Source of the DNA: Phoronis australis
Taxonomy: Eukaryota; Animalia; Phoronida
DNA: 64,000 nucleotides
Assembly: GCA_002633005.1 (NCBI GenBank)
Contig: NMRA01000108.1
Location: forward strand, 477,006-541,005
Reading direction: 5' to 3'
The translations under genes were made by a program, and so were the position numbers. The notes under the pieces were generated by a model. The model was given only the letters and a program-made list of their open reading frames with translations. It did no database searches and was not told where the DNA came from. Below are positions 4,637 through 64,000 of the stretch, in pieces (position 1 is the first letter of the stretch; each line of letters starts with the position of its first letter).

Positions 4637-4803
4637 CTAATTTCTGCGTCCTCTTCCTCCGTTACCACGGTGATATCCTGTTTCACCAGGTGGCTGCTGA
4701 CTTCCAGCCCCACTGTTCACGCGACCCCTTCCTCGACCTCTGTTGGCTGACTTTCTATGATGACCTTGACCTCTCCAACTTGATGTGCACGGTCTTTCAT
4801 CAC
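4637..4803 (-). CDS. Probable terminal exon encoding an RG/RGG-rich tail of the fusion protein
   Basis: The donor ATTA|GTAAGT at 5345/5344 and the acceptor TTTACTTTCCATGAAG|GT at 4804/4803 are phase-compatible. The exon reads SDERPCTSSWRGQGHHRKSANRGRGRGRVNSGAGSQQPPGETGYHRGNGGRGRRN*. Confidence 0.6.
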
Positions 4804-5336
4804 CTTCATGGAAAGTAAATAAATAGGACCTTTGCATTGGTGTTACATTTCCAAATATAAATGCACAGTAGTAATAACGTAACCCAAATCAATACACTAT
4901 TATGTCCTCCCATGACTTTCTATAAAAATGTACGCTTCCCCTACGAATAGCATGTCACATCTTGTAACCCTCAAACTCCGTCTAAGTCACTGCCACATAT
5001 GACAAGTCTTTCAGTCACTGCTCTCTTCTTCAGCATGTTTTTCTATAATTTATAAACAGTACAGTAAGTCACAATCTAGAAACCCTCATATACAATCAAT
5101 ATCACCTTCTATGACATCATCAAATTACAGGCTTGTTTAAACACACTCTTTCTTCATGCTAGCAACCACGCATGTCAATCTGACAAACCTGACATGGTCA
5201 GTTGACTCATTGCTGATGATCATACAACAATTATATTACAGAAATTTGCACTTCAAAACACATTTTGACTTTCCCCTTAAACATTCAACCTGCAGCTATA
5301 TATTCATTCGTCTTCACAAACCACTGGTCGCCAACA

Positions 5337-8300
5337 TCACTTACTAATTTCGACCTTTTCATGTCGCACCCACTCAATCCACCGTTTCCAGGTATCATCG
5401 GTTCCCAAAGTTTCAGCATTTCCCAATACGATCAGGCCACGCTTAGCACGAGTTAAAGCGACATTCATCCTTCTGCTGTCATCAATGAAACCAAGCTGGC
5501 CATGATCATTAGACCTCACAGTAGAAAAGATGATTACGTCCCGTTCCTGGCCTTGAAAGCCATCAACGGTCCTAATGTTGACATTTGCAATTCCTTTAGT
5601 TTGTAAGGCATCCACTATTTTGGAGACCTACAACAGAAAAGTGTTAGTACAAAGTACATTTTTTTAAATTTCATAAATATGACTGTAGAAGATAAATGGC
5701 ATAACTGCTACACTCGAATTGACATAATACCTGTAAATGACCTAGAACAATAACAAGAGCATCGTATGTACTAATTAAGACACCAACTGTTGTAAGTAAT
5801 GCTCTAAAAGCAAAGCCCAATTCCATAAAATGAGAAGAATGAAATCACCATAACTCATCATTTTGTGTTTTCTAACTCTGCAGTCTCATTCTGCATTATA
5901 ATTTCCCTCACAGCGTCATGTGATTAATATGCCACTAATAAAATAAATAAACTTATAGTTGATTACGTTAATACATAGTTATTAGACCACTATTAAACTT
6001 AACTGTTAAGATTAATGGCAGAAACAATGTGAAACTCTGACTGTAGTTGATTAAAAAATAGCTAGTGCAGGTGGTATTATATACGTTGCATCAGACATGT
6101 TACTCAGCCCAGGGCCCATATTACTGGACCCACATTGCTGCACCAAGCACCTGACACTATTTTTCATACATACAACACAGTCACATAGTATTCACTGAAA
6201 TGGTCACCCAGTCTTTTAAGAAGTTTAAATAAATAAATAAATATTATATACACAAATAAAGACCGAGCTGAGGAGCTAAAGACCTGACTCAAGGGTCTAG
6301 TAGTAGAGTCCAGTGGGATTCGAGCCTACAACCATGAGAACAAGAGGCATACACTCAACCCACTAGACCACACTGCCACCTCTTGGTTGTGACACTGTTA
6401 AAGTCAGTGCTATGGTAAATCAGCACTGATTTCATACCTGCGCCTTGTACGGTGAGATGACGCCAATGGCACTCTCTTCCAGCCCACCTGACAACAGTGT
6501 CTCCACATCACTAACCACACGATCCACCTCTGATTGGTTGAACTTTGAGGAGCCTTTTGACCTTTCTTCATTCTATAAATATATTACAACAATATCCACT
6601 TCTGATTTGTTGAACTTTGAGGACCCTTTTGACCTTTTTTCATTCTACAAAGATATCACAACACCTCCGATTTATTGAACTTTGAGGGGCCTTTTGACCT
6701 TTCTTCATTCTATAAATCCACCTCTTGATTTGTTGAACTTTGAGGGGCCTTTTGACCTCTCATTCTATAAATATACTAAATTATCCACCTCTGATTGGTT
6801 GAACTTTGAGGAGCCCTTTGACCTTTCCTCATTCTATAAATATACTACAATATCCACCTCTGATTGGTTGAACTTTGAGGAGCACTTTGACCTTTCTTCA
6901 TTCTATAAATACATTACAACAATATTCACCTCTAATTGGTTGAACTTTGAGGAACCTTTTGACCTTTCCCCATTTTACAAGTGCATTGCAGTAAAGTTTG
7001 TTGAATAAGGACTTTTCATAAAATTTTCTTAATAAAAACAAATAAGTAGTTTTTCTTGCACAGCTAATCATCAACCAAGCATTTGGTGAACTTCTGAGGA
7101 TTTAAAAACATGGTGAGCTTTTAAAAAAAAAATGGAAAATAATAATTTCAGACTTTCATTTAATTTCGTTTTGGAAAAAAATTCATCACACAAATGCCTT
7201 TAAAGTAGTCCATGTGGTAAAAAGATGGGATAGGTGGCCTAAAATGAAAGTAATTGTCAAGCTTTGAGCTGATCATTGTGTGCTGGAAAAATATTGAGAA
7301 GGATCACTCTTGTGTCCATGGCAACCGAGGAACGACAGTAAACATCTTAGACTTCAGTTAAGGCTTCAAAAAAGCAGCAAAATCTAAGGAAAACAATAAA
7401 TGGAATATTTATTTTCCTGATAAAATGCATACTTCTAAATTACAGACATCAGGCATTTCAAACTGTGCTCAAGTACTGCAGAAATCAACTAAATAAAACC
7501 GCTAGATTATCCCGTGAAACACGCAGATCTTCACCACTGAAAGCAATTTGTTTCAGTAGTTACCTTTGGCATGTTGACAAATGCTACAGGTTTTTGACCA
7601 GGCCAGTCAAACATCAAGGGTAGGGGTCGATCCTCAGCTGTAACACCATCTCTAAGTTGTGACTTGTACCACATTTTGGAGGGGAATGCTGAAATGAGTG
7701 GGTGCATGCGGTACTGAGTATCCAGCAAGTAGACAGGGTATTCCTCTGACCTTAACCTGAAATAAAGAACAAAAAATATTCTAGAAATTTAGCACTTGAT
7801 ATAGAATAGGACAAAGAATTTAAGGTTATCACAAATACCTTATCGACAAGTCTGTAAATTTTTCAAAATATCTACAAAACCACTGAATCTAACTAAGCAT
7901 AAAATATATTTTCTGAAAGTAGAAATTCTGTAGAATTTGACTTTTGACCAGTTGCCAATCTGCCACTAATTAGTTTGCTTGACCTTGTTTTTGAAGAAAA
8001 TTTAGCAAAAAAAGAATTACATTCATAGCAACACTTCTCAAGCATCATTTTTAAAAGTTTGACCATGTAAAAGTTGCACCCAGACAAGTAACTTTGCATG
8101 GACAAATGGACATAACTAGATCCTTACTGCCCTATACCTTGGTCATATTCCGAGTCTCTTCACCAAAAAGAGTTCTACCTCCTTGCCTTACATGATCGAG
8201 CTATTTTTTCTGTATCAGTCTTAGTTAACAGAAATTGGGGTTTTTTGATGCCTCGTGCTCAGCTGTGCTCCCAATAACCTCTCAACTGCAGGCNACTGTG

Positions 8301-11300
8301 CTCAAGTACTGCGGAAATCAACTAAATAAAACCGCTAGATTATCCCGTGAAACACGCAGATCTTCACCACTGAAAGCAATTTGTTTCAGTAGTTACCTTT
8401 GGCATGTTGACAAATGCTACAGGTTTTTGACCAGGCCAGTCAAACATCAAGGGTAGGGGTCGATCCTCAGCTGTAACACCATCTCTAAGTTGTGACTTGT
8501 ACCACATTTTGGAGGGGAATGCTGAAATGAGTGGGTGCATGCGGTACTGAGTATCCAGCAAGTAGACAGGGTATTCCTCTGACCTTAACCTGAAATAAAG
8601 AACAAAAAATATTCTAGAAATTTAGCACTTGATATAGAATAGGACAAAGAATTTAAGGTTATCACAAATACCTTATCGACAAGTCTGTAAATTTTTCAAA
8701 ATATCTACAAAACCACTGAATCTAACTAAGCATAAAATATATTTTCTGAAAGTAGAAATTCTGTAGAATTTGACTTTTGACCAGTTGCCAATCTGCCACT
8801 AATTAGTTTGCTTGACCTTGTTTTTGACGAAAATTTAGCAAAAAAAGAAGTTACATTCATAGCAACACTTCTCAAGCATCATTTTTAAAAGTTTGACCAT
8901 GTAAAAGTTGCACCCATACAAGTAACTTTGCATGGACAAATGGACATAACTAGATCCTTACTGCCCTATACCTTGGTCATATACCGAGTCTCTTCACCAA
9001 AAAGAGTTCTACCTCCTTGCCTTACATGATCGAGCTATTTTTTCTGTATCAGTCTTAGTTAACAGAAATTGGGGGTTTTTGATGCCTCGTGCTCGGCTGG
9101 TGCTCCCAATAACCTCTCAACTGCAGGCTGACATGACCATTTTTTCAGCTGCAAACCCATCAGAACAGAGTCACAAGCTTTATGTGAACAAGGAGGCATG
9201 AGGCTGACGCAAGACAATGGTGGGAATGCGTTACACAATAACTTACAGGTCTTCGAGCAATTGAGGATAGGGAGAGGGGAGCGAACAAAAAATCTTTCGC
9301 ACGACTACAAAAACCCAACAATCAGAATTGATGCTCATCGTCAGTGTTGCAGGGAACGCTAGGATACTTCTTTCTGGCATTCAATTCATCACAGCTAGCC
9401 TGCACTGATGGTAACAGCCTTCCGACCATTCTATCAAGCAATAAAACTGCAGCTGGAATCCCTACCTTTCAAAGAGAGACACCTTCAGGCCAGCAGCTTG
9501 TTTACACAGGCTGAATGGAGGAAGCTGCATGTCATCCCCAATCAAGCATATTTTCCTCGCACCGTGTGCGACGGCCACCAATATGGCGGGCTCGATAGCC
9601 TGAACAGCTTCATCAACCAACACGTGTCTGAATTGGATGTCGTTCAGTAGAGCAGAGCCACTGGCGATACACGTAGCACACAACACCTGGAACATTCATT
9701 TTGCGCAATATTAAGGTACTATGGAAACTAGCAATCTTCAAGTAAAATGACCAGCGTCAGCATAAAATAAAAAACTGGGGTCTTTTTCATAAAAATTGAC
9801 TTAATACTTAAATAATTTTTTTAACTGAAGTTCAAAGTGATTTTCTCTAGGCCAGTCAGCTAATTGGTAGTTCATTCACCACAGTAAAATTGGAATATGT
9901 TAAAATTGTATGTCAAAAAAGAGTATCACATAATCAAGACGTACTAAATTAAGATTCCAATTTCAACTGGACCAGGATGGCTTAGGATAGTTTCTAAACT
10001 AACAAATTTGCACCCTACTAAAGAGTTGAGAAAAATAAACAAAGTCTTCAGTAGGACAGAAATGGGAGAAAACAAGAAGCACAAAGCTTAGTCGTCTTTA
10101 ATTACTAACCAAGGACTGTATCTTCTTTAAATAGAAATTTACTTGAATTAACAGAAGGTAAATTAATAAGTGAGCCAATAGACCTTTTAAATAAGAAGTT
10201 TGTGGCTGCATTTCGTAGGGGTTGCCAAAAGTTATTAACAAAAATACCACTATCACCACACCTTGCACTTTTTGATGATTTTTTCAGCGTTGCATTGACG
10301 AACATTTCCTCTTTTGTCTGAACATCGTTTTTCAAGCAGAAACTCTTCAAGTTCTGGTTTTGATTTCTCCTCACCGCTTGCTAGTCTGATGATGTCATTC
10401 GAAGACACGCCCAATGAGATCAGTTTCCTCACCAAATTCTTAACACCTTCGTTAGTTTCGGCAACAACCAGAACCTATATCATAAGTGAAAAAGTGGAGT
10501 ATACAAATGTGTTTCTATCTAAAACACAGCACATCACAAATACTTTGTCAATTCGTGACAAAATTTTCTGCAGATTACCCCGTTACATCTAAAGCCTTAA
10601 TTCCAAAGATTCAAATTCCCAATGATTGGGACATAATAGCTGTCACAATCCTACCACAATCAATGTCAGCCCTGCATGCTGGTAAAATGTAACAATTGTT
10701 ACATTTTAAGCCATAATTGTTACATAAGTTGTTACATTTTACGAAATTGTTACATTTACCTAAAATGCACATGCCAGAAATGTACCATTGTTACATTTTA
10801 GGAAAGCAACTCATATTTCATGAGTTTGCATGGTATTTGTCAAAGGGAAAACCGTTCACTTAACACCTTCTTTCTCAGATTGTGTGAATGAAATTCTACC
10901 AAATGTGCCAGGTCGACTTTGTCCCTATGTACTTTCCATGGGTTTTTAACATGTGTAGTTTTATGGTACAGTCAAAAATGTACAGTGTACAGTTTCAACT
11001 CCACACGAAAGGAGATTCCAGGATCAGGTAACAAGTTTTTTATCGTTAAGGTGTTCTTGCAATCTTTTATTGGCGCTCATAAACCAACTGTGTATTACAG
11101 TAAACACACTTCCCTTGGTAAGAACAACGACATCGTATTTGCCTAATATTTATCGTATTTTCCCCGGAACGAATGACTTTTACAAAATTTTTCATGGAGA
11201 ATTCAATTTTGGAAGCCAATTTTGGATAGAAAAAACACCAGTTTTAGTCCAAGATAGTTTGGTTTATTTTGGCCTTGGAGTAACTGCCATGCTTCACACA

Positions 11301-13524
11301 AAAGGAGAAAAACAAGTTTCAGATCCCAAAGGGTACTGTCTACCACCATAGGTAAGAATGACAATTTTTTAATGTCGACTGCCTCCAGAGCTCAGACAAC
11401 TTAACGCAATATTTTAACTTACACATCATCGTGGAACAATGCCCAGGTCTTTGACAAGGAATGTTTTCAACAAGTTACAGGCAATAATTTGACGGTCTGA
11501 ATTCAGTGCTTCGTGGCAAACTACAGATGGATATACTAATACAGTGCTTGCCGATAGTTCAGAAATGATCAATTTTTGAAGTTGGTACACGCCTAAACAA
11601 GATTTTAAATCTCAGCCTCCTCTTTTCACAAAAGTAGGCCTATTCTGCATCCACAGCTGTCAAGACTATGTCCCTCATAATATTGTTAAAGCTGAACATA
11701 GGAGCCCCATTAAAATCCTTTTGGAACAGCACTTGCCGTCCACTATGGAAAGTTGTTACATTTTACGAAATTGTTACATTTTAGGGTGTATCAGTGCTCT
11801 CCTTGGTAGATCAATGCATCAAATTTCATGAAGATCTACCGTAATTGTTCGGGTTAGCGCCCTGGGCGGTTAAAAAAAAACAAAACTGCCACTAGGAGGT
11901 GCCTCAGTAGTGCAAATCATCTGAAAATCATCGTCAATCGTCCTTTACATAGTAAGCATATACATGCCAATTTTCACAATCATCCTTAGAGCGGTTTNCT
12001 ACCAAGGAAATATCCTCCAACAATTCTGATTGAACAAGGCAGATTTTGTCCAGCGCAGACAGCATTCTGTGATAGGTTACAAGGTTGGGAAATGCATCTG
12101 CCCTCCACTTCACACGAGACGAGTCTTTAGAAAGTAAACTTTTCAACGACCCTATGTCTTCCTTAGGCCATACTAAATTGGCTTTGACTATCATACCTGC
12201 AGAATAAGACAGACCAGTAATAAACTGACAACATTTAAAGCTGTTATACACCAGCCCTTTACAACAAAGAAATTTAGTCTACGAACTTTTTATTTATACA
12301 CTAAATATACACTATATGCCGAAGAAGACAAATGGCATATCATTTCGCGCCACGATGGTCAAGTTCAGGAAAAATTGACGCAATTAGAAGACAGGACCGT
12401 CAGAAAACCAGCAGTCTTGCTCTCCTCAATAGGAACTACATAGTACACCAGTACCCAACCAAAACATCGCCATCCCCAGCCAGCTTCACAAGAAGTCAGC
12501 TACCAAATTACACGAAGACCCTGAAAGGGTTTAGGTGATAAAGCACAGACTAACACTCAGGCAAAGATAACAGCAATAAGCACCGATGTGTTACGTTTAT
12601 GTGGACCCACAAAAAGGTAATCAAATTGGCTTGGCATTAGGGTTGTCCGAACAGTTACATTAGTCTGAAAGTTAACTGCTGGTCTAAAATGACAAAAAGA
12701 CAAAAGATCAAGTTCTGTTGGAACAACAAATATTAGGAATAATAAGCCAGTCGAGATTGATGGCTAGCAATTAAATTCTAGGTCACTTAATTTTTCGGTA
12801 AGCTATTTTAACAAGTAAATAAAAACAACAACGGATTTAAGCCACAGGTTGTCATTGTTAGTCTAGTTTACTGTTACTTCCTGTAACTGACTGTCTATGT
12901 TTTATTACTTGTTGTTGGCCTGGCAAGGTGGCCATTGTTTTTTTTCTTCTGATGACGGTGTTTCAATAAATGCCAAAACATGTCAAGCAAGATTAAATCC
13001 GTTGTTTTTCTTAATAAACGTAAGCTACTGTTATAAATTGTGACATAAAGTTTGGACTAAAATCAGACCACACTGCAAGGTTTGGCTGAACGTCAAAAAA
13101 TGCTATCCAAAAATCCCAATCTTTCCACTGAGTTAACTGTAATCAATAAAACAAACCAAATTTCGGCAAAATAAACAGAATAGCAAACAATATCTTTTTT
13201 ATTAATTACCAGTAATATCTTCAACTGCAACAAAATATGTAGGATCATAGACCATCTTGTCATCCTGAACCAAGGTCAAGGCTATTCCATCTGTGAGTTT
13301 AAAAGGCTGTCTAGATCCCTCAATGTTGATATGAACATCAACATTGGCACTACCAACTTCTTCACTGATGAACACGCCACAAAGGACATACTTGTCACTG
13401 GTGACAGCAGATAGTTTAATCTGGCGAATCTCCTCTACTATCTCCATCGTGATGAGTGATGTCCAGTGGTAGTGGTATTTTTTACAGCCATTTCTAAAGG
13501 CATTGTTGTGCAAAGGAACAATAC
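5337..13524 (-). CDS. UPF1/DNA2-NAM7-like superfamily 1 helicase domain (AAA_11/AAA_12)
   Basis: Motifs: stalk YHYHWTSLITME, FPNLVTYHRMLSAL, Ia VLVVAETNEGVKNL, II VLVDEAVQAIEP, III LIGDDMQLPP, SLFERL, LDTQYRMHPLI, IGVISPYKAQ, V TVDGFQGQERD, VI RRMNVALTRAKRGL. Walker A is not present in the assembly. Confidence 0.95.
6070..6382 (-). mobile_element. tRNA-derived SINE-like element
   Basis: The minus-strand head GGTGGCAGTGTGGTCTAGTGGGTTGAG...GTAGGCTCGAATCCCAC has Pol III A-box-like and B-box-like motifs. A second copy lies at ~690-945. Confidence 0.6.
6523..6985. repeat. Minisatellite, about 7 copies of a ~56-72 bp unit containing a helicase splice acceptor and the start of the exon
   Basis: The unit TCCACCTCTGATTGGTTGAACTTTGAGGAGCCTTTTGACCTTTCTTCATTCTATAAA recurs near 6523, 6595, 6662, 6717, 6784, 6853 and 6925. 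Confidence 0.95.
7462..9128. repeat. Near-identical 833-bp tandem duplication around a single n (probable haplotype/assembly duplication) containing the QYRMHP helicase exon twice
   Basis: 7462-8293 matches 8295-9128, with n at 8294 and only scattered SNPs/indels. Exon copies are at 7564-7756 and 8397-8589. Confidence 0.9.
10671..11793. mobile_element. Non-autonomous TIR element with TTGTTACATTT subterminal repeats
   Basis: The left end ...TAAAATGTAACAA is inverted relative to the right end TTGTTACATTTTA. TTGTTACATT is repeated at 10690-10800 and 11750-11785. Confidence 0.5.
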
Positions 13525-13596
13525 CTGAAAATCAAAAGACACTGTGATATCAACTTAGTTGAAGAGGCATACTCTATCATCATTACAAAGTTAGGA

Positions 13597-14418
13597 AACA
13601 AGAGCAACGTGGATCGTTTAAATGTGCCCAAGACTACACTGTGGGTTGGTTGACAGAGAAGCGGATGCCAAACAGACTGGAAAACAATAAAAACGACCAG
13701 TAGGTGGCGCAAAATATGATAAATCCATACGAGAACAGGAATGTGTTATCATTTCAGTAGGAAGCTATTTTATCAAATTTCATAAAAATCAGTCACGCAG
13801 CTTCAGAGAAACTGCATGAGGAAAACGAAAAAAATGAAATCGCCACTAGGGGACGCTAAGTGTTTTGTCAGATCTGCCTGAAAGTTGTCCTTCTTCGTAG
13901 TCAACTTCACATAAATACACTATGCTAAATTTAAAGATCCCTTACAAGGTTTAGGAGATACAGGCTTGGGCTTTAAAAAATACCACTAGGAGACGTCAAT
14001 AGTTGAGGTCGTCAGAAAATCATCGTCAACGCTCCTCTTCCCATTAGGACCATCATGCCAATTTCCAATCATTCTTGGTTGACAGAGGGGTAAATGCCAA
14101 AAAAAACTCATTTACCATTAAAAATGGCCACTGGGTGACGCAAACTACCTCAAATCAAACTTAAAATGGGAGGATAGCGTCACTTCACTAAGAGATGCTT
14201 ATCTGCCAAATTTTATGAAAATCCATTGAGGACACCGTAGTCGATGAGGTTTGAAATTCGTCGCCATTTGTCCTCAGCTTCATAGAAACACATCTGCCGA
14301 ATCTCATCAAGATCCTGTGACGGAGTTTAGAAGATACAGCTGCAGATGGCGGATGCCGGGCGACAAACATCCAGACAGTAATGTGCACCCACATATGAAT
14401 ATTGTGGGTGCATAAAAA
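13597..14418 (+). mobile_element. Helentron-associated (HINE/DINE-like) non-autonomous element
   Basis: Starts AACAAGAGCAACG and ends in the hairpin GCACCCACA...TGTGGGTGC followed by ATAAAAAA. Internal GCCACTAGG motifs are shared with 30677-32176, ~11800-11997 and ~14450-15065. Confidence 0.6.
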
Positions 14419-15623
14419 ATGAAATGAATGAACTCCAAAGATATAAAGATACTAAAGAAAAATTTGTCATGAGGGAGCACAGCTGTAGTCAGATCAGTTC
14501 CGATACATTGATGCCAGCTATAAGGATCACACTAAATTGTCAAATTTCAAAAATCTTCCTCAAAGAGTTAAGAAGATTCCATTGAAAACACAAAAGCAAA
14601 ATCACCACTAAGAGACGACACTGTAGTCGTACCTGTCAGTAAATTGTGGCCTTCTTATAAGGAATACATCTGAACATTTTCATAATGATCTTTTGAACAA
14701 TTGGCAGATAAAGAAGCGGGTGCCATAAAATGGACTAAACATAACAAAACATGATCACAAGGGAGCACAAAAAACGCCACATCCAAATGGAACGGCATCG
14801 GTCTCTCCTTAATGAAAACCTATCCACCAACTTGAAGGAACTCCAAAGAACAGAGGCAAACGTAAACAATTAAAATTGCTATTAGGGGGCACAGCGGTTG
14901 TCAGATCAGTCTAAAATGTGTTGTCATTTGCCATTGGTTTGATAGGAATCTATATGTCTAATTTCAATAACATTCTGCAAGGGGTTCAGGAGATACAGCA
15001 ACGAATACCCATACAGAGATGACCACAATATGCACCTGCATAATTATAAATATGTGGGCCCACAAAGACCGTCGAATTATGTTTGTTTTCTGCCACATAA
15101 CTAAGGCAAGAACTCAATTGAAAAATTGGTGAGCAACAACAATAGAAAGTGATTATGTTGTACCCTACCAACTATTCCAAATGGCAGTCAAACAATATAG
15201 CGGTGTTCTGTTCAATTTAATGCACTTATTCAAACTTACTACATTTAAGAAAATTAAAACCTGAAGCTCCAGCCAAAGCCCAGTACAGCATCTGTGAATC
15301 AGTGTTTACTGAAGCAGTGTTTAACTGGCAATTTACCAGTTACAGCTCACGACTCTATGAAATTCCCAAAGAGAAATAGCAAGAGTAAGAACCAAGATGA
15401 CTGAATCTCTTAGACCGATACAGTAGAATAACATCATACTTAATATCTGTCCCTATTTACAGTCAAACGTTAGGTACACATTTTCAGTAAAAATATATCA
15501 TTTTGCCATAAAACTGGTAGCTCCCGCCCCAATGAATTTGCTTACACGGTAATATACTTTTGATTCTCTGCGCAAACGGGCTTTGGGTATTTGATAACTT
15601 CAGTGGGCCCAAAACTTACTAAC

Positions 15624-18600
15624 CGACATGAAGAAGTTGCAATAGATCCAACGCCACCAACTTGTCACAACTTGATGCAAAAATCAAATGTTGCAGTATT
15701 TCAGACAGCTGCATCGCAGTGAATCCTTCCTTCCATTTGGCCATGCCATCGCACAACCTATATGAAAGATTGCATAATCATGTAATATCAGTTGTCTGAG
15801 TTATATTAGTTTCAATTGCCAAAATGAGATAAAGGTTTAAATATTTAAGATAATTAAAATGTAAAATTTAAATCTGTTAAGCCATTAAATTTGATGCACA
15901 TGAAAATATATCAGTAATGGCTATTACAAAAACACAAAAAATGTCCTTCCAGAACAGGAGATCATAGTTTTGCTCCAAGTAAGACAATGAAAAACAATTT
16001 TGCAAAAATCATCATGACGAAAAATCTAGACCAAAGAAAATTCTTACGATATGTCATCCAAATAGCCGGAGATATGCAGAGATATGACTGAGGGAGCATG
16101 TCATGGTTTACAGTATAAGAATCTTTTCTGAGAGGATGAGTAAGTACCTTTCAATTTTAGCGGTGGAGGGGCAACTATCTAACAGAGTGGTCAAAATATC
16201 CTTGTATTCACTGCTGCATTGAAGATGTAAGTCATGTTGCCAAAGCAACTGCTCCATGACATCAGCACATTGGCCTTTCACCTACAAACAAAAAAGATGT
16301 TTTTACAAAACAGCCGCACCACTTTTTTCCGAAAGAGTCGTCTGAGTGCTCTTTTTGAATGCAAAGTCATTTTAGGAAAATTGATGTTTACCAAAACCCC
16401 AGAATACGTTGAGAGGTAGAGATGGATGTACACCTTGTAGCACAGTTTGTGTTACTGTCAAATTTAATTAATTAAACAATTATTCCTAAAAATTTACCTC
16501 AGGTTCTGTTTTGAAGACGTTGTAATCGTCCTAGATCAACAATGGTGACTTTTCCTTTCTCTTTTGTCAACAATTCTTTGGAAAGCTGATTAACCTTTTC
16601 CTCTGCAGTTATAAACCTCTTCAAACTTTCTTCGAGTTTGGGAAACTGGAGCTCATAATCATTCGGAACGCAATAAGCTGGGGTGTCAGGATTCCTTGTT
16701 GGGTTGGCCTCAGGTTCATCTTGCACATTCCTCTCATAAAGTAAACCTGAAGACATGTGGGGAGACGCATGTCGGAAGAAGATCTCCACCTCTATCACAT
16801 CTTCTCGCGCAAGTTTTACGTTATTTTGCGACTGTTTAAAGCCAGCCCCGTACTTGTTCATGGCTACGCTCATTCCGAGCATTTCATCATTTAAGTTCAT
16901 CATGCACAAGAAAGTGTCTGTGCGCTCATTCTTAAAAATTTGCATGCGTTCACCATCCAGCGAGATTTCATACCCATCCACAAGGTCTGTTGAAACATTG
17001 TGTGTTCCTTCTTTGTTATGAACTGCGGCAAACATTTTCACGGGAATTTTTGCCTTGTCCTCAACTCTCACAGTGTCTTTTAATTTTAGCTCGACAGCCA
17101 TACTGACAGCCACCACCCACTCTTCACCTCTCATCAGAATCTAAGAGCAATGACATTGTTCAAAAGTGCATCATGAAACAAAACAAAGTTTAGTTTCCAG
17201 CAGCACAGCATAGCCACTAAAGACTTTTATCAAAAGGGCAGAATCATCCTCATTTCAAACATACCGTATCTTGTATTATTCCAACAAGATTTCCACTGTC
17301 ACAGTCCAACATATGGACTGTCAATGTTTTTCTCTGAGATTTTCACATCCAATTTGAATTCGAAAGAGGCTCCAAAATTCTGAATACAGTAGCTGCAACA
17401 TTTCATTACGGACAGAATCAGTCAAAACAATTTAATGTGTTCTTGGCTTTGGTGGTGAGCCTTTTAGGCAATCATTTCTATGCTCCAGCAAATCCTCAGG
17501 GGAGTGTGGATTTCTCCCACGTATTTCAGTAGTTCAAGTATTGTCATGGGTGGTACTCACTGGTGGTAACATTCCGGGTATTTGCCCTTCTTATAGATCG
17601 GTCATCATTTGATACATAATAATCTATGGTATGGTATCCATTTTTGTGCTGGCCAAAGTATTTTTAAATGTTAGTCTGAATTGTGAATGTTCAGCAACAT
17701 TGAAAAACCACCGTGACTGTGAGGAAAACAACCCACTTGGTTGTAACTTTTGTTCATCCGACTTTAAAGGTCTATTGCTAACAAGTAAAAATTGAGAAAT
17801 ATATACTTAATTCACTCCTTGCATATGATAAAAAGTCAAAATACATTTAAAGCCCTAGATAAGCGTGTGTGAGCCAATGCAAACACCAGTGGCCTGTTGC
17901 ATGAAACAGTCCCAAATAGGTACTCAACTAAGTTCCCCAACTCCTTTTCATAATTGTCTCGTTCTTTAGGCACAGATGTAATATTTTTTCTGTAATTTTA
18001 TCTTTATTATGAGCTCTTCTTTGACTAATGGCGTTTTCTAATAACATAACTAAAAACTGAGCTCTTAATTCCATCAAAACAATTACGGACTTAGTCCTTA
18101 AATTGGGGGCGTTGCATCAAAAGATCCCTACATATTTTCAAAAATATTGAGAATTCAATGCAGAGTTCACACTCGATTTGTATCAAACCCAAGAACTGAA
18201 TTGGAAATGAAACAAAAACAACAAAAGAAAGGACAATCAGTGATTTCACAAACCCGCAAATACTTAGTGGATCTAGAGAATTAGCCGAGTCCCTATTTGG
18301 GACTGTTTCATGCAACCGGGCACAGCAGTGGCGGATTTAGAGGAGGGCCAAGGGGGCCCCCCTTAAACTCAAAATCGTGGACAGTATAGCTACTAATGAA
18401 ATGGTTAAAAATTACATAATTTTCATTATAGTTGTTATGGTAGAGGGGGAGATACAGCAACAGATGCCCAACGGCCAGATGCCAGACAGAGATAACAGCA
18501 ATGTGCACTCACATAGTTATGTATGCACGGGCATCATAAGCGATAGGATAAGGCAATTGTATTTGAGAATGCACACAACTGTCAGCACCACACGCCAGGA

Positions 18601-19209: not shown

Positions 19210-19869
19210 CTGCAAAGTTGCAATCACAATGTGAGCTCAAATGCACAAACACTTTGCGAATTGTATACTATCCTACAAAATAACTCTTGTTGTAATGTTG
19301 AAACATGCAAGTAATGCATTATGTAAAAACTGTGCGCCTGTCAAGCCAACAAGTTTCAAGAAGAGTAATAAAGACAACGGACCAACTGTTTAATGGCTCT
19401 CAACACAAAGAAAGAATTAAGGGCAGTCTGCACAACAGTCGTGAAGCTGTGTGGCCATTGTAGCGTCAACCTGATAGAAGAATTTCTTAATCAACAAATT
19501 GGTCATTTTAATTTAATTTACCAGGAAAGCAGATTTTGTTTGCCCTGTCAGTCTAAGTGTTCACCCTGCTCATGTTTTCTTATTTTCAATCTGCCTTATA
19601 TCACATTTTAAATATAAACTCTAAGGGGCTCCATGGAATCACGCAATTGAATATCTGATACGAATCCTTGTGCAATTCTTTTCCGATGGCTTAACTATCT
19701 AATCTTTCCTTTTAATTGCCCATTTCAATTTTCCAAGTGTGTACAACCGAATCTAATCAAATCAACATTCACGAAAATCAATAAATCTCAGTACCAGTGA
19801 CCTAAAATAATAATTAATTCTGTCCTCCCATGTGCTCGCAAGCAGTAATTCAAGCATAAGCATACTCAC

Positions 19870-22800
19870 CAGTTTTGGCTGAATCGATGGCTACATTGAA
19901 TAAGTTAGCAATCATTTCGCACTCATTGGAGTCGATGCCTCTTATGTCTAACCACTTGTCAAACAAGCGGGACAACTTAGGCACGGTATGCTTATCAGTT
20001 TCGCAGAAATATTTGATCAAATCCTCTTTAGTTATTTCTGACTTTGGGGATATTTCAGCAGCTGTAAAATACCATTAAATAATCGAATAACAATGGCTTC
20101 TACCTAAACTTTAAAATTCATATTAATGCAGACTTTGAACAATAAAGAATGAAATATGTTCTTTTTTCAGTACATTTTGGTACTAAAACGGAGTGGAAAC
20201 AATTCCATGGCGACTCCACCTCAACTGTAGTTACGATCACCTCAACTCTAGTCCTGGACTAGCAAACCTACATTACAAATCACAGGCCTGAGCTCCTAAG
20301 CTCCAAATCAGCTCTGAAAGTCCTCCATACCCACATTGCAAAAAATACATCAAATTCCAATCCCACACCTGAGTGCAGGTGAATAATCAGGTCCCTCAGG
20401 GTATGGATTTTGGTAATAGGGTATGGAATATGTTTGACCCCTGTGGAGTTCAGGAACACAGGCACGGAATTTTAACATGGATTTGTTGTTTACTTGCCCT
20501 GAACCATGGCTTAGGGGAACAAAGTAGGAATTTAGAGGATGAATAGTTTCTACTCCCTGGGAAATACAAATCCTATCTACAGCGGCATTAAAAACTGTGC
20601 TTTCATTCTGACAAAAAAGGTTTCATTTAGGCCACATTCAGCTTTGAAACTTGTCTCAAATTGTTCTTTAGTCAAATTGGAGATGATTTCAAGGCTTTGA
20701 AAATTAATGCTGTCAGAACATAATTCCTTCAGACCAAGCTCAGTTTCAGATTGTGTCGTGACATGAAAAGTTATGAACTCGTGGTCTGGTGAAATAACGG
20801 ACAGTCAGTTCTTCCTGAGCCAGAGATCTCAACAGAATAAGGAACACAATAACACCTGACAGTGTCCAATCTTATAGCGGTATTTTTTGATATGCTGAAT
20901 AAAAGTGCCCGTCAAGCCTCAAGAGCCTAACAATGCTGCAGGCTTCATGCAACAGATTATCACATTGTCTTGTTATGCAGCGGGCAACTCAGTTATATTC
21001 TTAAGTTGTATTCCTCAACTTTTCCCATGTAAACTCAAAAGTGCATGCAGGGCTCGACATAACGAGCTGCAGGTCGCATTTGCGACCTGAAATTTGGAAA
21101 TGCGAGCTGAGATTTTTGTCAGCTCGTATCAAGTCGCAAAATGCGACCTGGAATTTCCAACGAATGCGAGCTGAGTTTTTACACTTCTCAACAGATACCT
21201 GGCAAATACAAAGCAGCTCTTGTTAATCCGACCGTTATTTGGTNNNNNNNNNNNNNNNNNNNNNNNNNNNNNNNNNNNNNNNNNNNNNNNNNNNNNNNNN
21301 NNNNNNNNNNNNNNNNNNNNNNNNNNNNNNNNNNNNNNNNNNNNNNNNNNNNNNNNNNNNNNNNNNNNNNNNNNNNNNNNNNNNNNNNNNNNNNNNNNNN
21401 NNNNNNNNNNNNNNNNNNNNNNNNNNNNNNNNNNNNNNNNNNNNNNNNNNNNNNNNNNNNNNNNNNNNNNNNNNNNNNNNNNNNNNNNNNNNNNNNNNNN
21501 NNNNNNNNNNNNNNNNNNNNNNNNNNNNNNNNNNNNNNNNNNNNNNNNNNNNNNNNNNNNNNNNNNNNNNNNNNNNNNNNNNNNNNNNNNNNNNNNNNNN
21601 NNNNNNNNNNNNNNNNNNNNNNNNNNNNNNNNNNNNNNNNNNNNNNNNNNNNNNNNNNNNNNNNNNNNNNNNNNNNNNNNNNNNNNNNNNNNNNNNNNNN
21701 NNNNNNNNNNNNNNNNNNNNNNNNNNNNNNNNNNNNNNNNNNNNNNNNNNNNNNNNNNNNNNNNNNNNNNNNNNNNNNNNNNNNNNNNNNNNNNNNNNNN
21801 NNNNNNNNNNNNNNNNNNNNNNNNNNNNNNNNNNNNNNNNNNNNNNNNNNNNNNNNNNNNNNNNNNNNNNNNNNNNNNNNNNNNNNNNNNNNNNNNNNNN
21901 NNNNNNNNNNNNNNNNNNNNNNNNNNNNNNNNNNNNNNNNNNNNNNNNNNNNNNNNNNNTGAATAGTTTCTACTCCCTGGGAAATACAAATCCTATCTAC
22001 AGCGGCATTAAAAACTGTGCTTTCATTCTGACAAAAAAGGTTTCATTTAGGCCACATTCAGCTTTGAAACTTGTCTCAAATTGTTCTTTAGTCAAATTGG
22101 AGATGATTTCAAGGCTTTGAAAATTAATGCTGTCAGAACATATTCTTCAGACCAAGCTCAAAGTTTCAGATCGTGTCGTGACATGAAAAGTTATGAACTC
22201 GTGGTCTGGTGAAATAACGGACATTCAGTTCTTCCTGAGCCAGAGATCTCAACAAAATAAGGAACACAATAACACCTGACAGTGTCCAATTTTATAGCGG
22301 TATTTTTTGATATGCTGAATAAAATGCCCGTCAAGCCTCAAGAGCCTAACAATGCTGCAGGCTTCATGCAACAGATTATCACATTGTCTTGTTACGCAGC
22401 GGGCAACTCAGTTATATTCTTAAGTTGTATTCCTCAACTTTTCCCATGTAAACTCAAAAGTGCATGCCACCAACTCAGTCTCAATAAGTTAACAAATGCC
22501 AGACAAACCAGTGTAACATGTGAACTCGTTGACATAGTCACCATTATCCAATAGTTCATTGATTACAGGGTCAAAGAATTTAGTCTCTCTTGCTGATCAA
22601 GCAGACTTGTACTTTCGAGGGTTGACAATTAAGAGTTACCACGCACTATTTTGTTTTAAAATTTAGTGATCTGGTTGCAGATTATATTTGTTGGAACACT
22701 ATGACCGGTTTTAATATCACCCTTTCACGTTCATGAATTATTTTCAAAAATGCAATTTCAACCTTTTGTTTTTTGAAAGTTAACCATAACATTTGTTTTA

Positions 22801-28800: not shown

Positions 28801-31800
28801 AGACAAGACCTTAACCCATGCAAGCATCATGTCAAGTAGTGAAAGTCTCTGGGTAAAGAACACTTCGCAAGACGATTTGGCAATCGAAGTGTCCGGCGTG
28901 ATCTGTGTCACATTTGAGTACAAAAACCAGACTGAGTGTTAAATTCCAGTTATCCACGAAGTGACAAAGAACAAAAAATATTTGAACTTTGTAGACGTTT
29001 TTGCGTGGCGGTGAAGTTTCCCGTCACGATTAGGTGTGTGGCGGTCAATTTGAGTATGATTTACGAGTGGCGGGGCCAAAACGAGCGTGGCAGGCCACTC
29101 AGAAGTTTACGCACAGGGGAAACCCTACACTAAATAAAATTTGACCATGGTATTTGTGCTAACAGTGCACTTTTCTTTTTTGCAAAATTTCATTAGAACG
29201 ACATGACCCAATTAGTAACAAATTGATAAAAAGTTGAAAATCCAATTCTACAGGCTATCTACCTTCAGAAAGTATATACTGTTTTTACTAAGTTACATTA
29301 AGTTTGTTAAATGCAGTCAGGCTTGTTGGTAAGGTCCTGCATAACTTCAACAGCCAAATTTTCAAAAGAAGACAGGATACCACAAACCAGGGTTCGACAT
29401 AACGAGCTGCAGGCCGCATTTGCGACCTGAAATTAGGAAATGCGAGCTGAGATTTTTGTCAGCTTGTATCAAGTCGCAAAATGTGACCTGGAATTTCCAA
29501 CGAATGCTAGCTGAGTTTGTACACTTCTCGGCAGAAATCCTGGCAAAGATAAACCACGTACTCTTGTTAATCCGACCGTTACTTGCTTGGTGCCAAATCC
29601 AAGTTCAAAAGAACATTAATCGAGAACAGCCTCCCGTTCAGTAACGTAGGACCTCGCTAAAAATCAAAGACTTCGCGAGATTACGTGAGATATTGCCATG
29701 CATTTTAAATAAAAACATGTGACTTTGACTAGGTTTTAAGTCCTAGTGTAGGTCCCGGCGTCTACTGAACGCACGCCAGCCCTACCGATGAGATGTGCAG
29801 AATCGATCTTTGACGCATTTCATTGGCTAACAATTTTCGGTCACTTCTGCAAATTTCCGGATTCGCCAAAGAAAGTTTCGGGCCACTGCATAACAAATGA
29901 TAAAACATCACAAAACAGCGGTGTTTCTACTAATTCTTGAGCGATCAACTTACCAAACTTTGTGGTTGACAAATAGGTTTATTTTTCGCGTAAGATGTCT
30001 TTATTACATCGATGTACCAAATATCCACGACAATATCCCTGATATCGCACTGCGGCACTAGTCGATCCCGTCGTTAGCGCGCAAGTGGTCCTGGCAGACA
30101 ATCGTGACTTAGAGATGTGCGTCTCGTTTTTATCGCATAAGACAGCCAAAGTGAAAATGACAGCCCTATTAATTGCCAAACTACGGCCACGTCTTTACTT
30201 TCAGTTGCCAAGAAATTCTCAAACCCTTTTACTTGTTTCTGGGGTTACGTGCGCGAAATATGATTTGTCTCACACGTGGTTGCCAACGAAAAGTGTAGGC
30301 CTACTACAGCGATTCAAGTGCGTGAACTCACGCGTGCACACCAATTCAAAGCTGCACATCAAAAGAGAACAGCGACAGTCCTAAATGAAAGAGTATACCG
30401 GCTTGGCTCTGTTAAGCACCCAGGTGCCAGTGGTTTATTTGAAAATGAACTCATAGATTCCCGATGGTTATAAAAGACACGATGCTTTACGATATTCCTC
30501 GGGACCGATATAACCCAGAACTGATATTTTCCTGTTCCGATGTTTCCCGAGCTTGATGTTTCCCAAACCTTGTATTCTATGCCCGTAGCCAGCTATTGCA
30601 ATTAAACGGGTACTAGATGCAAAACTGTGGTTAGCGAACTTTTAATTCTTGTCTTCATACACTTTTCTCAATATATAACAAGAGCAACGCAGAGCGTTGA
30701 AATGCGCCCACAATTGCATTGCATACGGTATCCTTTTAGGGTTGTTTATTGGTACCATAAAGTGGCCAGTAGAGGGCATACATGTAGTATGTTGTACTTT
30801 GCAAAATGGAAAGGCATGGTCATTGTCTCCTCAATAGGCTAGGGGCAAAATGTGAGTGATCTTCATAATACAAGCACATCCTATACATCAGTTGCTTAAA
30901 GCACCACAGAAACATAGAATTAAAAAAAAAATTACCAACATACGAGATTAGCACAGCATTAGAATGCCAGAAACAAATTTCTACTTGGAAATTTTCCGTC
31001 ATAGTTACGAAGTAACACAAAGTATACACCTGAAGACCTATGAAAATACAGAGGTCAATGTAAAATACTAAAATTGCCAATAGAGGCATACCAGTAGTCA
31101 GAATCATCCTAAAGTCGTCATCGTCCGTTGTCAACATCACATAAATACACTTGCTAAATTAAGTAAAGATCCTGCAAACGGTTTGGGAGATACAGCCATG
31201 GGCACAAAAAAAAACTGCCACTAGGAGGTGGCACAGTAATCAAAGTCACGGGAAATTCAGTGTCAACCGTCCTCTTCATAGTAAGAACATACATGCCAAT
31301 TTTCACAATCATACTTATAGCGGTTTGGTTGATAGAGGGGTGGACGCCAAAAAACAGACTCAAAAACAGTAAAAATGGCCACTGGGTGTCGCAAACTAGG
31401 TGGAATCCATCCGAAAACTGGAGGATAGCGTCATCGCACTAATAGGTGCCTACATACTAAATTTCATGAAAATCCGTTAAGGACTTGTGAAGATACAGAG
31501 GTAAACGTAAAAAAATAAAATTGCCACTATGGGGCACACTGGTAGGCGGAGCCGTCCAAAAGTCGTCATCATCTGTTGTTAACATAATATAAATACACTT
31601 ATTAAATTTCGTAAAGATCCTGCGAACGGTTTAGGAGATACAGCCATAGGCGCAAAAAAAACAAAACTGCCACTAGGAGGCGCCACAGTAGTCCAAATCG
31701 TCTGAAAATCATCGTCAACCGTCCTCTACATAGTATGCATATACAAGCCAATTTTCACAATCATCCTTCGAGCGGTTTGGTTGATAGATGGGGTGGACGC

Positions 31801-33752
31801 ACAAAAACAGACTCGAAAACACTAAAAATGGCCACTAAGTGGCGGAAACTATGTCTAATCCATCTGAAAACGGCAGGATAGCTTCATCTCACTAATAGGT
31901 GCCTACATACCAAATTTCATGAAAATCCATTCAGGACTTTTGAAGATACAAAGGTAAGCGTAAAAAACTAAAATTGCCACTAGGGGGCACACCGGTAGTC
32001 AGATCCGTTCGAAAGTTCGCACATGCCGTCCCATTCATGAATGGAACATATGTGCCAAATTTCATGAACATATGTCAAAGGGTTATGGAGATAAAGCAGC
32101 GGACGCCGGACGGGGGCCGCCCGGACGGATATGACGGCATAATGCGTCCACATATAAATATGTGGGTGCATAACAAAACGCATACAAACATCACGGCCAA
32201 GTAGTACCAATTTGATAACGGTAACTAAATCAAGATTTGTTGTTGGACAGAGAACATGGGTTCACAGTCACTTTAACAAAGATTTTAAATGCAAAAAATT
32301 ACCTTGTACAGGAAAAACCACAACGTCCACAAGATGGTGACACTCTGGAATATCAACACAGGTGAGAACTCGGACATCACCTTTGTAATAACATGGATTC
32401 TTGCACACGACCACTTCCATGTCACTGAGAACTTTTGGAACACCCCCTATTGTTGGTTGAAGAAAGCAGGTACCATACTTGAGCTTTCCCGATGGGTCAC
32501 ATACACCATAGATGTTGCGTGATTTCTCAATAGGGATTTTAAGGCCAAGAGCAGGAGACTTTTTTTTCTTCAATAACTTGTTAGTGTTCCCATAGTTTGG
32601 GGCTTCAATGCCCTTTCGTCAAATGCGAAGCAATTCCTTTTTAACTTCAACATCCGTACTAGCGCTGTTTGGATCAGCAATCAATCTTTCAGCAAGATTG
32701 AAGCGTTCACTTGCACACAAATAACGTATCTGGAGATCCCGATCCGAGGTCAGGCGACTGAGGTCTTGAAAGTGGTTCTCCTGCTTGCCCAACAGAACAT
32801 CATCATGAACTCCAAGCGCTGACAAAAGGCAGATGTATTGCTTATTCAGAACACCATAACAATTAGGCCTCGACATACCTAACCCATTATCTACCACTCC
32901 TAAGTTATATGGACCAGAATCAATGTCGTAGTTCCACTGAAACTTCTCCATTGAAGGTCGAATCTTGACTCCGGCCTCTAATGTAGGGTCCAACATTAGC
33001 ATGCCTTTACATCCCAGTAAACGCACTTGAAACGCAGATGGCACACCCAACCGTAAATATGAATACTTCTCTGTAATTTCAAGCTTTTCTAAAATTTGTT
33101 TTGCAAGGTTCACGGAAATAAAGCCACAACCATCGGTAAACGTGTGGGAATTCCTTTCAACATCACCAACCCTTTGTATCTCTTCTTTTGTGAGAGTAAC
33201 AACAGGTTTTGAGGCTGAGAGCAAAAGTCCGATTCTTGCAGCTTTTTTAGATACCGTTTTCAGGTTATCAAACCGGCCAAAGGCATTGACAATGCACCTA
33301 AAATCTCCAAGCTCGTTATAGTTGTATAGCACACATGTGCACTCACGCAGCTGGCTAGGGGAGTGGCCGAAAAAATTATAGATCCTGACGTTATATTGTC
33401 CATTGATTTTTTCGCAGACTTTCAAACCTTTGTTTAAAAAATCAGACATGACCTTGGCAGGACATCTTTTGTCAAAGTGAATAACTAAGAACCGCCTGGC
33501 TCCATGTTTGTTGTACAGAGGACACGACGTTGATTCGGCATATGGACATTGATGCAGCTCAAGGTAAAACTCATCCAATGAATTTTTCTTCATTCCATAT
33601 GACAATATTTTACGTCGAACAATGTAAACGGTCTTCAAATCCATATTCCCTAAAGGCGATGGAGGGAATTTAATGACATCGTCATTTTCTTCTTTAGGTG
33701 ACACCAGGTCCTTTAATTCATATGTCTTCTTCATCTTGATTTTCACCCCGTC
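19870..33752 (-). CDS. Eukaryotic (QDE-1/RDR/Rdp1/EGO-1 family) RNA-dependent RNA polymerase domain, three exons
   Basis: Family motifs appear in order: FTDGCGFIS, PSAFQVRLLGCKGML, RPSMEKF, LNKQYICLLSALGV, GVCDPSGKL, KNPCYYKGDVR, VVFPVQG|DRPHADEIAGSDLDGDKFFVCWD (catalytic DxDGD, exon 27178-27062) and AIDSAKTG (exon 20061-19870). Confidence 0.95.
20540..22466. repeat. Duplicated segment across an N gap (two haplotypes); one copy carries a transposon insertion and the other the empty site
   Basis: 20540-21047 matches 21960-22466. The element CAGGGCTCGACATAACG starts at 21048 after GTGCATG. The second copy reads GTGCATG|CCACC. The gap is 21244-21959. Confidence 0.85.
23047..24235. mobile_element. 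Non-autonomous DNA transposon family B (CAGGGCTTGGAAT TIR, 6-bp TSD)
   Basis: TIR CAGGGCTTGGAAT...ATTCCAAGCTCTG, with the direct repeat AAGAAT on both sides. Confidence 0.8.
24338..26795. mobile_element. Non-autonomous DNA transposon family A (CAGGGCTCGAC TIR), full-length copy
   Basis: TIR CAGGGCTCGAC...GTCGAGCCCTG with subterminal GGTCGCA/TGCGACC repeats. Other copies start at 21048 and 29388. No transposase ORF was seen. Confidence 0.8.
29388..30661. mobile_element. Truncated copy of transposon family A
   Basis: Collinear with 24338-~25456 (CAGGGTTCGACATAACGAGCTGCAGG ... GTCTTCATAC). Confidence 0.8.
30677..32176 (+). mobile_element. Helentron-associated (HINE-like) element with ~450-bp internal tandem subunits
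   Basis: Starts AACAAGAGCAACG...GCGCCCACA. Subunits begin AAATTGCCA near 31072, 31518 and 31971. A GGACG tract precedes the terminal hairpin CCACATA-TAAA-TATGTGG. Confidence 0.65.
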
Positions 33753-55530: not shown

Positions 55531-55965
55531 CCGAGAGGGCAGCCATAACAAACTGTTTTATACGGCGTGTTTCAACAAGGGATTTCAATTTGAAACAGCC
55601 TCTAAGGCAAAGTACCAGGGAAACCACAACCGCACTTTTTCCAAGTTTACCTTCAAACCATGACCCTAATAAAGTGAACTTTCTCCAAACTGGGCCCTCA
55701 GAAGGTGAATCTTGACCGCAGGCCTCGTTTTCACTCTCAAAAAAGACGAAGCTATGACTACTCTCACTCTGCTAGACATTCAAGCTTCATGATGTTCTGA
55801 CTAATCCAGTCATTGTGATTGTGTACCTGGTGCGTCTGCAAACTGAGATAGTCTTTTTCGAAGAAAACGAGGGTAAATTCGGCATTGCAACCGATCCAGA
55901 TTGTTGACCGATATCGACGTGTGGGTCTGTAAGTGTTACCAGATAAGATAACTGTCGAGAGGAAT

Positions 55966-63868: not shown

Positions 63869-64000
63869 GTAAATGTCGGTCTGACGACTGTCACAAAGGC
63901 TGGGTTATTCCCATTTACTGGATGACCGGCTCACGATAAAGTTTCAATGAATGCCCAACGTTACCTGAGAGTGATAATGAAATATGACACCGCCAAAATT

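Follow-up and report, generated by a model that had tools for sequence, protein, structure and literature searches.

A 64,000-nucleotide stretch of the Phoronis australis genome (contig NMRA01000108.1; hereafter the window) carries on its minus strand a gene that encodes an RdRP (RNA-dependent RNA polymerase), then a linker with a predicted TLDc-fold domain, and then a UPF1-like helicase of superfamily 1B (SF1B), as read from Pfam matches to the open reading frames (ORFs) of its exons and from its homologues. The next recognisable gene upstream, in divergent orientation, encodes an AAA_28/NadR-like kinase. The polymerase-helicase fusion is genuine, though interrupted: an animal member of a family already known but little studied. 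A first-pass annotation of the window had proposed the fusion; it overlooked the lesions in the reading frame, as well as the linker's TLDc-fold domain and the divergently oriented kinase gene.

An RdRP-helicase gene on the minus strand

PF05183, AAA_11 and AAA_12, the Pfam families that the first-pass annotation had put forward as a check, were all matched on window exons: PF05183 on minus-strand exons A (33734–32303), B (27178–27062) and C (20061–19870), and AAA_11 and AAA_12 on exons within 10474–5345. Exon A encodes the N-terminal part of the polymerase with the double-psi beta-barrel region (residues 1–477); it has a likely ATG and an acceptor before 33752, scores 248.6 bits against PF05183 (E 1.8e-73; gathering cut-off 23.8) and is 44–47% identical to its Branchiostoma orthologues. 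The intact catalytic motif GSDLDGD, of the DbDGD type, lies on exon B (E 8.4e-11), and the C-terminal part of the RdRP with the motif AIDSAKTG on exon C, which was recognised by Pfam and by tblastn to homologues. AIDSAKTG is joined in phase 1 to KTVEIPP at 19870>19209, as the first-pass annotation had read it. Exon D (19209–18662; tblastn E 6e-26 to the Branchiostoma homologue P0074) holds the end of the RdRP core, possibly BACK-like helices and, from about 18835, the start of the TLDc-fold domain; translation and alignment place the remainder of that domain (to about 16777) in exon E (17140–16498), together with an acidic linker and a break in the frame. A helical domain is encoded by exons F (16281–16148), open only in phase 0, and G (15757–15624); these two 45-codon exons were placed through a multiple alignment of homologues and not by tblastn.

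The helicase part begins with the SF1B stalk helix and 1B beta-barrel in exon H (13524–13210; homologue matches) and continues with the end of 1B and the second stalk helix in exon I (12196–11999; tblastn E 5.6e-9 to homologue P0010), which is cut at an assembly join. Motif Ia (ETNEGVK) is found in exon J (10474–10262; AAA_11 E 0.0011), Walker B (DEAVQ) and motif III in exon K (9686–9466; AAA_11 E 4.7e-18), the QYRMH motif in exon L (7756–7564; AAA_12 E 1.2e-13 on its duplicate copy), the motif IV region in exon M (6572–6438; homologue matches), and motifs V and VI in exon N (5627–5345; AAA_12 E 5.4e-28; best PDB match UPF1, E 4e-20). Exon O (4803–4637) encodes an RG-rich tail and the stop codon, which is TAG in the assembly and TGG in RNA runs X6 and X7. 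All of the modelled introns begin with GT and end with AG. A degenerate tandem array of ~65–70 bp units (6438–6990, minus strand) repeats the acceptor of exon M together with its initial ~55 nt, offering several candidate acceptors.

The thirteen coding exons that have at least 60 codons or bear a conserved motif were matched colinearly by single-chain homologues in tblastn. The assembly is free of N over 11999–21243, which reaches from the C-terminal exon of the RdRP to the 1B/stalk exon of the helicase, and the fusion is therefore not the product of a scaffold join.

Single-chain homologues in animals and fungi

A search for the same architecture elsewhere, which the first-pass annotation had called for, succeeded, and the architecture proved to be catalogued already. 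RdRP, AAA_11 and AAA_12 co-occur in 13 distinct database proteins (6 of 70 hits in one set and 9 of 120 listed hits in another, two being shared), the named sources being three Branchiostoma species (amphioxus), Dendronephthya (soft coral), Anneissia (crinoid), Brachionus and Adineta (rotifers), and Letrouitia and Rhinocladiella (fungi). These fused homologues align in order along the window exons and span both breaks in the window copy; the Branchiostoma protein P0074 matches the window colinearly at 39% identity overall. In six of the 84 fetched loci a single stop-free ORF of 1,748–1,780 codons spans RdRP, linker and helicase, with no gene prediction involved.

The linker itself is a family trait. 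A profile built from the window model, ten animal-clade proteins and homologue P0037, searched against 189 stored proteins, matched 51 of them, including fungal (E 1.9e-27 and 2.2e-25), diatom (5e-17) and bdelloid (1e-23) members, and matched none of 27 other RdRPs and none of 111 stand-alone helicases. In a 31-row tree with other RdRPs from the same searches as outgroup (without plant, nematode or QDE-1 sequences), the family's RdRP domains formed one side of a branch supported at 100/99, with an animal subclade that includes the window (100/99) and a fungal subclade (100/99). The end branch of the window, at 0.48, is not unusually long. Among solved structures the RdRP is closest to plant RDR2 (E 5e-60; Z 34).

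Three other origins for the window gene were considered. Branchiostoma as its source was rejected at 39% identity, and a recent transfer from fungi was rejected for the window because its RdRP and its kinase each fall among animal-clade sequences. Nor is there support for a viral origin or viral cargo: 4 weak phage-type RdRP matches and 2 kinase matches in viral contigs are the only such hits. Database labels tell little of the family: the B. lanceolatum member P0190 (CAH1258237.1) is labelled 'UPF1' in NCBI/UniRef, and P0002 and P0004 are labelled 'regulator of nonsense transcripts 1' by JGI. The family is hidden in annotations because its members carry these names. Five metagenome contigs (L026, L029, L030, L036 and L038) encode single-ORF RdRPs of 2,600–2,800 aa that fall outside the RdRP-helicase family.

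Transcription of the locus

Three stranded RNA runs from one study, bearing the same species label, were sampled to about 18–19% of each run. Over the part of the locus covered, 3' of the first RdRP exons, exon-bearing bins had sense-strand RNA at mostly 2–11x per exon base on both sides of the RdRP/helicase interface, and repeat-free intron bins had 0–0.6. Sense depth on exon C was 6.1, 5.1 and 0.6 per exon base (0.6 in run X8); the last exon reached 8–24x, uncorrected for its untranslated region. Taken with the homologues, a single spliced mRNA in Phoronis australis is probable. One high-copy interspersed repeat recurs at 11872–11997, 13643–14233 and 31035–32016, and the repeat-bearing bin 11818–12354 shows RNA coverage several hundred-fold and strongly strand-biased.

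A rival possibility is that an RdRP gene and a neighbouring UPF1 paralogue were wrongly joined by the reader or by the assembly. The literal ORF does stop at 16501, and no predicted junction appears among the read joints listed; but the interface lies on one gap-free stretch, the exons on either side of the break correspond to successive stretches of the same single-ORF homologues, and RNA depth is similar on both sides of it, leaving a misjoin scarcely credible. The proposed one-gene fusion thus stands in its domains, their order and their homologues; what the window does not provide is a continuous assembled ORF or, among the joints listed, reads across the junctions. Likewise, a single polypeptide with both domains is what the 13 single-chain homologues and the six stop-free loci attest, but the assembled Phoronis copy is itself broken.

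Lesions in the assembled copy

The assembled copy lacks an uninterrupted reading frame. An in-frame TGA at 32621–32619 (minus strand) falls at residue 372, upstream of the catalytic DLDGD, at a place where homologues are continuous. Reading a 33-nt GT-AG segment around it as an intron was rejected: the segment is too short, and its removal would delete a helix conserved in homologues. The junction 16498>16281 is out of phase, exon E running into a second TGA (16501–16499) just before its donor. A frameshift in the last ~12 codons of exon E fits the homologue alignment; alternatively, weak phase-0 donors after 16595, 16550 or 16541 may be used. Read literally, the ORF therefore ends between the RdRP and helicase domains, where the first-pass annotation had seen no terminal stop exon. 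Its run of consecutive canonical exons holds for the GT-AG splice sites throughout, but is broken by the TGA at 32621, by the out-of-phase junction, by a missing Walker A exon and by the duplication of exon L.

The last two look like assembly faults. A single-N assembly join at 11998 coincides with the missing Q-motif/Walker A exon or exons, and a DNA contig of run X1 extends 757 nt past 11999 with bases that are absent from the window; a search of all six frames of the window found no Walker A in the gene. The second copy of exon L (8589–8397, minus strand) belongs to an 834-bp, 99% repeat either side of an N at 8294 and is most likely an assembly overlap. Near-identical direct duplications flank N runs at 7462–9128, 20540–22467 and 53108–55532, as is typical of joined haplotype contigs.

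The TGA at 32621 and the frame break in exon E may represent a null allele, consensus errors or true decay. Together with motif Ia, which reads K (ETNEGVK) where homologues mostly carry D, they could mean that the gene is dead or dying in the species as a transcribed pseudogene, beyond the assembled haplotype; in the same direction, 9 of 12 differences between RNA and assembly in coding exons alter the residue (among 40 of 522 difference rows listed, with the stop-codon site 4638 counted apart). Set against this are canonical splice sites throughout, intact DLDGD and other helicase motifs, exons transcribed in three samples, haplotype-overlap artefacts at the N joins, and an end branch of ordinary length. 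The terminal TAG reads TGG in two RNA runs, X6 and X7, and at least one stop is therefore allele-specific. We hold decay in the species to be improbable. The assembled copy would not yield a full protein; most probably it represents a null allele, or else a faulty consensus, of a gene that other individuals carry intact.

The helicase is nearest to UPF1

Motifs Ia, II (DE), III, IIIa, V and VI are present in the window helicase, and the Q motif and Walker A, lost from the window copy at the join at 11998, are present in 8 of 8 homologues scanned. The helicase of homologue P0010 matched UPF1 at E 5.6e-71 against 8.7e-34 for ZNFX1, in the ranking UPF1 > Sen1 > IGHMBP2 > Dna2 > ZNFX1; for window exon N the corresponding values were 4e-20 and 6e-15. 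Residues 431–607 of a homologue model (the linker of P0073), a stalk/1B region with which window exons H and I align, matched Sen1, SETX, ZNFX1 and UPF1 at Z 8.2–10.9. A 25-row tree placed the fused helicases on one side at a support of 97, with true UPF1 outside the fused clade. The UPF1 CH zinc-binding domain (PF09416) was not reported in the 13 window exon ORFs or among the families shown for full-length relatives, and Pfam scans of these relatives gave no zinc-finger domain. By sequence comparison the helicase is UPF1-like and not of the Hrr1/ZNFX1 type, so that of the earlier label 'UPF1/Hrr1-like' the first half is kept and the second dropped.

A predicted TLDc-fold domain between polymerase and helicase

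The linker is predicted, from structural models of two homologues, to hold a TLDc fold. In the AlphaFold model of P0009, residues 4–599 match plant RDR2 and residues 694–870 match NCOA7, OXR2, mEAK7, TBC1D24, Oxr1 and Rtc5, the best TLDc match having Z 13.5 and a root mean square deviation (rmsd) of 2.8 over 150 of 165 residues. The linker model of P0073, compared with 48,161 chains without Foldseek, returned TLDc proteins in all of the top six places (Z 11.2–13.3; best Z 13.3, rmsd 3.2, 156 aligned), followed by the stalk/1B region of Sen1, SETX and ZNFX1. Window residues 708–884 align to both modelled TLDc ranges (E 1.5e-15 and 6.5e-23). At the sequence level the Pfam TLD match stays below the cut-off, appearing in 2 of 33 members (best E 0.026). 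The BACK-like helices that precede the domain are a weak lead (Atlas 0.77; Pfam E 0.043 in 2 of 33 members), and no BACK structure was among the fold matches listed for the P0073 linker model.

The predicted fold is shared with NCOA7, OXR1, mEAK7, TBC1D24, Rtc5 and IFI44, from which the window domain differs in lying inside a polymerase-helicase. No publication linking TLDc with RdRP was found in the open-access literature, judged by title, and we regard the domain as an undescribed part of the RdRP-helicase family.

The domain might bind V-ATPase and so place the polymerase-helicase on endosomes or lysosomes, where viral RNA enters. The TLDc fold is clear in the models, and IFI44, an interferon-induced protein, belongs to the TLDc family. 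All five mouse TLDc proteins bind V-ATPase, with G815 of NCOA7 among the residues needed (PMC8608904). Identity of the window-type domain to solved TLDc domains is, however, 7–17%. Moreover, 22 of 22 aligned family members have a residue other than glycine at the position that we take to be equivalent to NCOA7 G815, mapped from motifs and spacing rather than by residue-level superposition. V-ATPase binding is therefore doubtful, inasmuch as this glycine appears to be absent, and a role as an endosomal tether is very unlikely.

A head-to-head kinase gene

The divergent neighbour has three coding exons on the plus strand, at 47386–47632 (Walker A GAHSTGKST; PF13521 E 7.4e-10), 50773–50884 (DR motif, by translation) and 51540–51771 (DDGMR lid, by translation), which form an intact 196-aa ORF with Walker A, DR, E-x-A-R and DDG-x-R motifs. 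None of the 57 ORFs of at least 55 codons between it and the RdRP-helicase gene matches Pfam. Its nearest solved relative is the ribosylnicotinamide kinase domain of NadR (E 7e-11). The C-terminal domain of NadR (PDB 6gye, 1lw7 and 8x7f) is the best solved match over the kinase length and has Walker A, E-x-A-R and DDG-x-R in common with it; unlike NadR, the window-type kinase is eukaryotic, stand-alone or fused to RdRP, and without an adenylyltransferase domain, and the likeness to a ribosylnicotinamide kinase is one of sequence. Between the two genes, consensus donors face outward at 44135 (minus) and at 44397 and 44523 (plus) from a CpG-retaining patch (44136–44522; CpG observed/expected 1.26), which suggests a bidirectional promoter common to both genes, with their first non-coding exons.

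To survey the linkage, the 84 loci were reduced to 64 with enough RdRP coverage, to 47 clusters at 90% identity, and to 33 clusters with the RdRP start and at least 1.8 kb upstream. Of the 26 family clusters, 22 had the kinase (20 fungal-clade divergent, 1 animal-clade divergent, 1 fused); of the 7 non-family RdRP clusters, none did. The second-round kinase profile was built from first-round hits, and Pfam confirmed 4 of 4 matches tested. In P0037 and in Rotaria the kinase domain is joined to the N-terminus of the RdRP-helicase itself, a fusion that occurs in bdelloids. In the kinase tree the window sequence falls with L005/L006, linked kinases of the animal clade, at a support of 95; this tree matches the RdRP tree, and joint inheritance is therefore favoured over recent transfer. 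No publication joining AAA_28, NadR or Ttd14 with RdRP was found in the open-access literature, by title and start of abstract, and the pairing common to animals and fungi is to that extent an undescribed part of the system.

The nearest prokaryotic relatives of the kinase that were found (L085–L164) are mostly from Planctomycetota, with no RdRP nearby; the kinase loci inspected, 80 from prokaryotes and 2 from viruses, had neither RdRP nor linker nor helicase within 5 kb, and no telling neighbours.

Farther along the plus strand lie cytochrome P450 exons (57968–58273 and 63661–63936); among solved structures they match human aromatase CYP19A1 best (E 5.6e-14 and 8.6e-14). CYP19 is usually regarded as chordate-restricted. 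At the other end of the window, two exon-like plus-strand ORFs (344–688 and 1234–1458), convergent with the 3' end of the RdRP-helicase gene, encode a coiled-coil-looking protein.

Discussion

The architecture of RdRP plus helicase is already known from published work. Fgrdrp5 of Fusarium graminearum (FGSG_09076) comprises an RdRP, a helicase domain at 1277–1478 and PF13087 at 1475–1677 (PMC11237814). The fungal members found here carry AAA_12 at comparable places (1450–1645 and 1466–1678) and share linker and RdRP clade with the window. Unlike the window gene, Fgrdrp5 is fungal and its helicase is called a DEAD-like domain, and the available portion of the paper mentions neither a TLDc domain nor a kinase partner (PMC11237814). 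From its architecture and domain coordinates, as described, Fgrdrp5 probably belongs to the same family. It is also a predicted target of virus-derived siRNAs (small interfering RNAs; PMC4870495). In Branchiostoma lanceolatum, BL02069 has a full RdRP with an intact site and AAA_12, an arrangement that, in the portion of the paper available, appears in the legend to Fig. 1B and without interpretation (Pinzon et al. 2019, PMC6396948). It resembles the window gene in pairing RdRP with AAA_12, and differs in species and in that the assembled window copy is interrupted; by architecture and species, BL02069 would be P0074/P0190 (XP_066277875/CAH1258237).

The first-pass annotation had seen in the gene an enzyme like the RNA-directed RNA polymerase complex (RDRC). 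In RDRC of S. pombe (Rdp1, Hrr1 and Cid12) and in EGO-1 with ZNFX-1 of C. elegans, an RdRP likewise works with an SF1B helicase (PMC9276528), but these are separate proteins with a ZNFX1-type helicase, and that of the window is nearest to UPF1. The helicase being UPF1-like rather than ZNFX1/Hrr1-like, the gene is at most an analogue of RDRC; RDRC and EGO-1/ZNFX-1 are analogues, not homologous assemblies. A precedent for the gene pair is viperin-CMPK2, in which a nucleotide-using immune enzyme adjoins, or is fused to, a P-loop kinase in fungi and animals (10.1101/2023.09.13.557418). That pair differs in having a radical SAM enzyme and another kinase family, and its function has been demonstrated, that of the window pair being conjectural.

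We consider it likely, by a modest balance, that the RdRP-TLDc-helicase protein and the kinase act jointly in an ancient module for RNA surveillance or antiviral defence. In it, target RNA would be copied by the polymerase, and the tethered helicase would remodel the template-product duplex. SF1B helicases move 5'->3', and an RdRP travels 3'->5' on its template; the helicase therefore cannot clear template ahead of the polymerase. More probably it would follow the new strand and strip it off, or oppose the polymerase and so limit product length. The RG-rich tail would aid RNA binding, and the kinase, by analogy with viperin-CMPK2, would phosphorylate a nucleoside or an RNA 5'-OH that feeds the polymerase. 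For helicase mechanism and kinase substrate alike this is a proposal; a role in RNA silencing or defence is plausible.

A number of observations weigh against joint action in such a module. No experimental work on an animal member, or on the kinase, is known to us. The Phoronis copy itself is interrupted by the TGA at residue 372 and the out-of-phase junction at 16498, and its motif Ia departs from that of its homologues. None of the 15 read joints listed, out of 247, is a predicted splice junction, and all 15 lie in repeats. A 39-row helicase tree that included P0079, a row with a long branch, failed to gather the fused group on one side (3 changes, 1 forced); the 25-row tree that did so left out P0079 along with 12 further stand-alone rows and 2 Branchiostoma rows that were near-duplicates, and had one UPF1 domain added. 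Neither tree contained Sen1, IGHMBP2 or ZNFX1. As to the kinase, none was seen in the 2.2–10 kb upstream of 4 of the 26 family clusters, namely L001–L003 (octocoral-like), L009/L031, L027 and L037; monophyly of the linked kinases is weak (59); and, 20 of the 22 kinase-linked clusters being fungal and related, independent animal support comes down to the window and one cluster (L005–L007). Finally, amphioxus small-RNA libraries revealed no RdRP-derived siRNAs (PMC6396948).

The last point bears equally on the more familiar possibility of an ordinary amplifier of RNA interference, a one-chain analogue of RDRC that makes double-stranded RNA for Dicer, with the kinase as a co-regulated neighbour and the TLDc-like domain as a spacer. 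Deletion of Fgrdrp5 reduces ascospore discharge and lowers Dicer-dependent exonic siRNAs, 5'-U and 21–25 nt long, by about 32% (PMC11237814), RDR2 is the closest solved structure, and SF1 helicases are partners of RdRPs in both S. pombe and C. elegans (PMC9276528). The siRNA effect is, however, partial and could be indirect, no secondary siRNAs were detected in amphioxus (PMC6396948), the helicase is not of the ZNFX1/Hrr1 type, and in fungi as well as animals the kinase occurs linked or fused, with none beside any of the 7 other RdRP clusters. We judge an ordinary amplifier unlikely. The small-RNA amplification or antiviral role first proposed for the gene thus remains plausible in view of the fungal siRNA effect, but sits uneasily with amphioxus (PMC11237814, PMC6396948).

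Extending the preferred reading, that of a joint surveillance or antiviral module, we raise only tentatively the possibility of a two-gene RNA-defence system, so far undescribed, that animals and fungi have in common and that dates back at least to their common ancestor. In it, a special nucleotide or 5' end would come from the kinase, and the products would be Dicer-independent and probably single-stranded; taken whole, the idea may well prove wrong.

The fusion itself is not new, its database copies often being mislabelled UPF1, and the window copy is a poor specimen because it is interrupted. What the locus adds is a tie between one class of animal RdRP and a genetically tractable fungal gene of the Fgrdrp5 type, and two handles for tests: i) the kinase, head-to-head or fused across fungi and animals, and ii) the hidden TLDc-fold domain. 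Conserved linkage to a kinase is rare in eukaryotes and was the hallmark of the viperin-CMPK2 antiviral pair. The amphioxus study poses as an open question why intact RdRP genes persist in many animals in which secondary siRNAs are not detectable (PMC6396948). If the two-gene system proves real, it would provide a function for animal RdRPs that make no secondary siRNAs.

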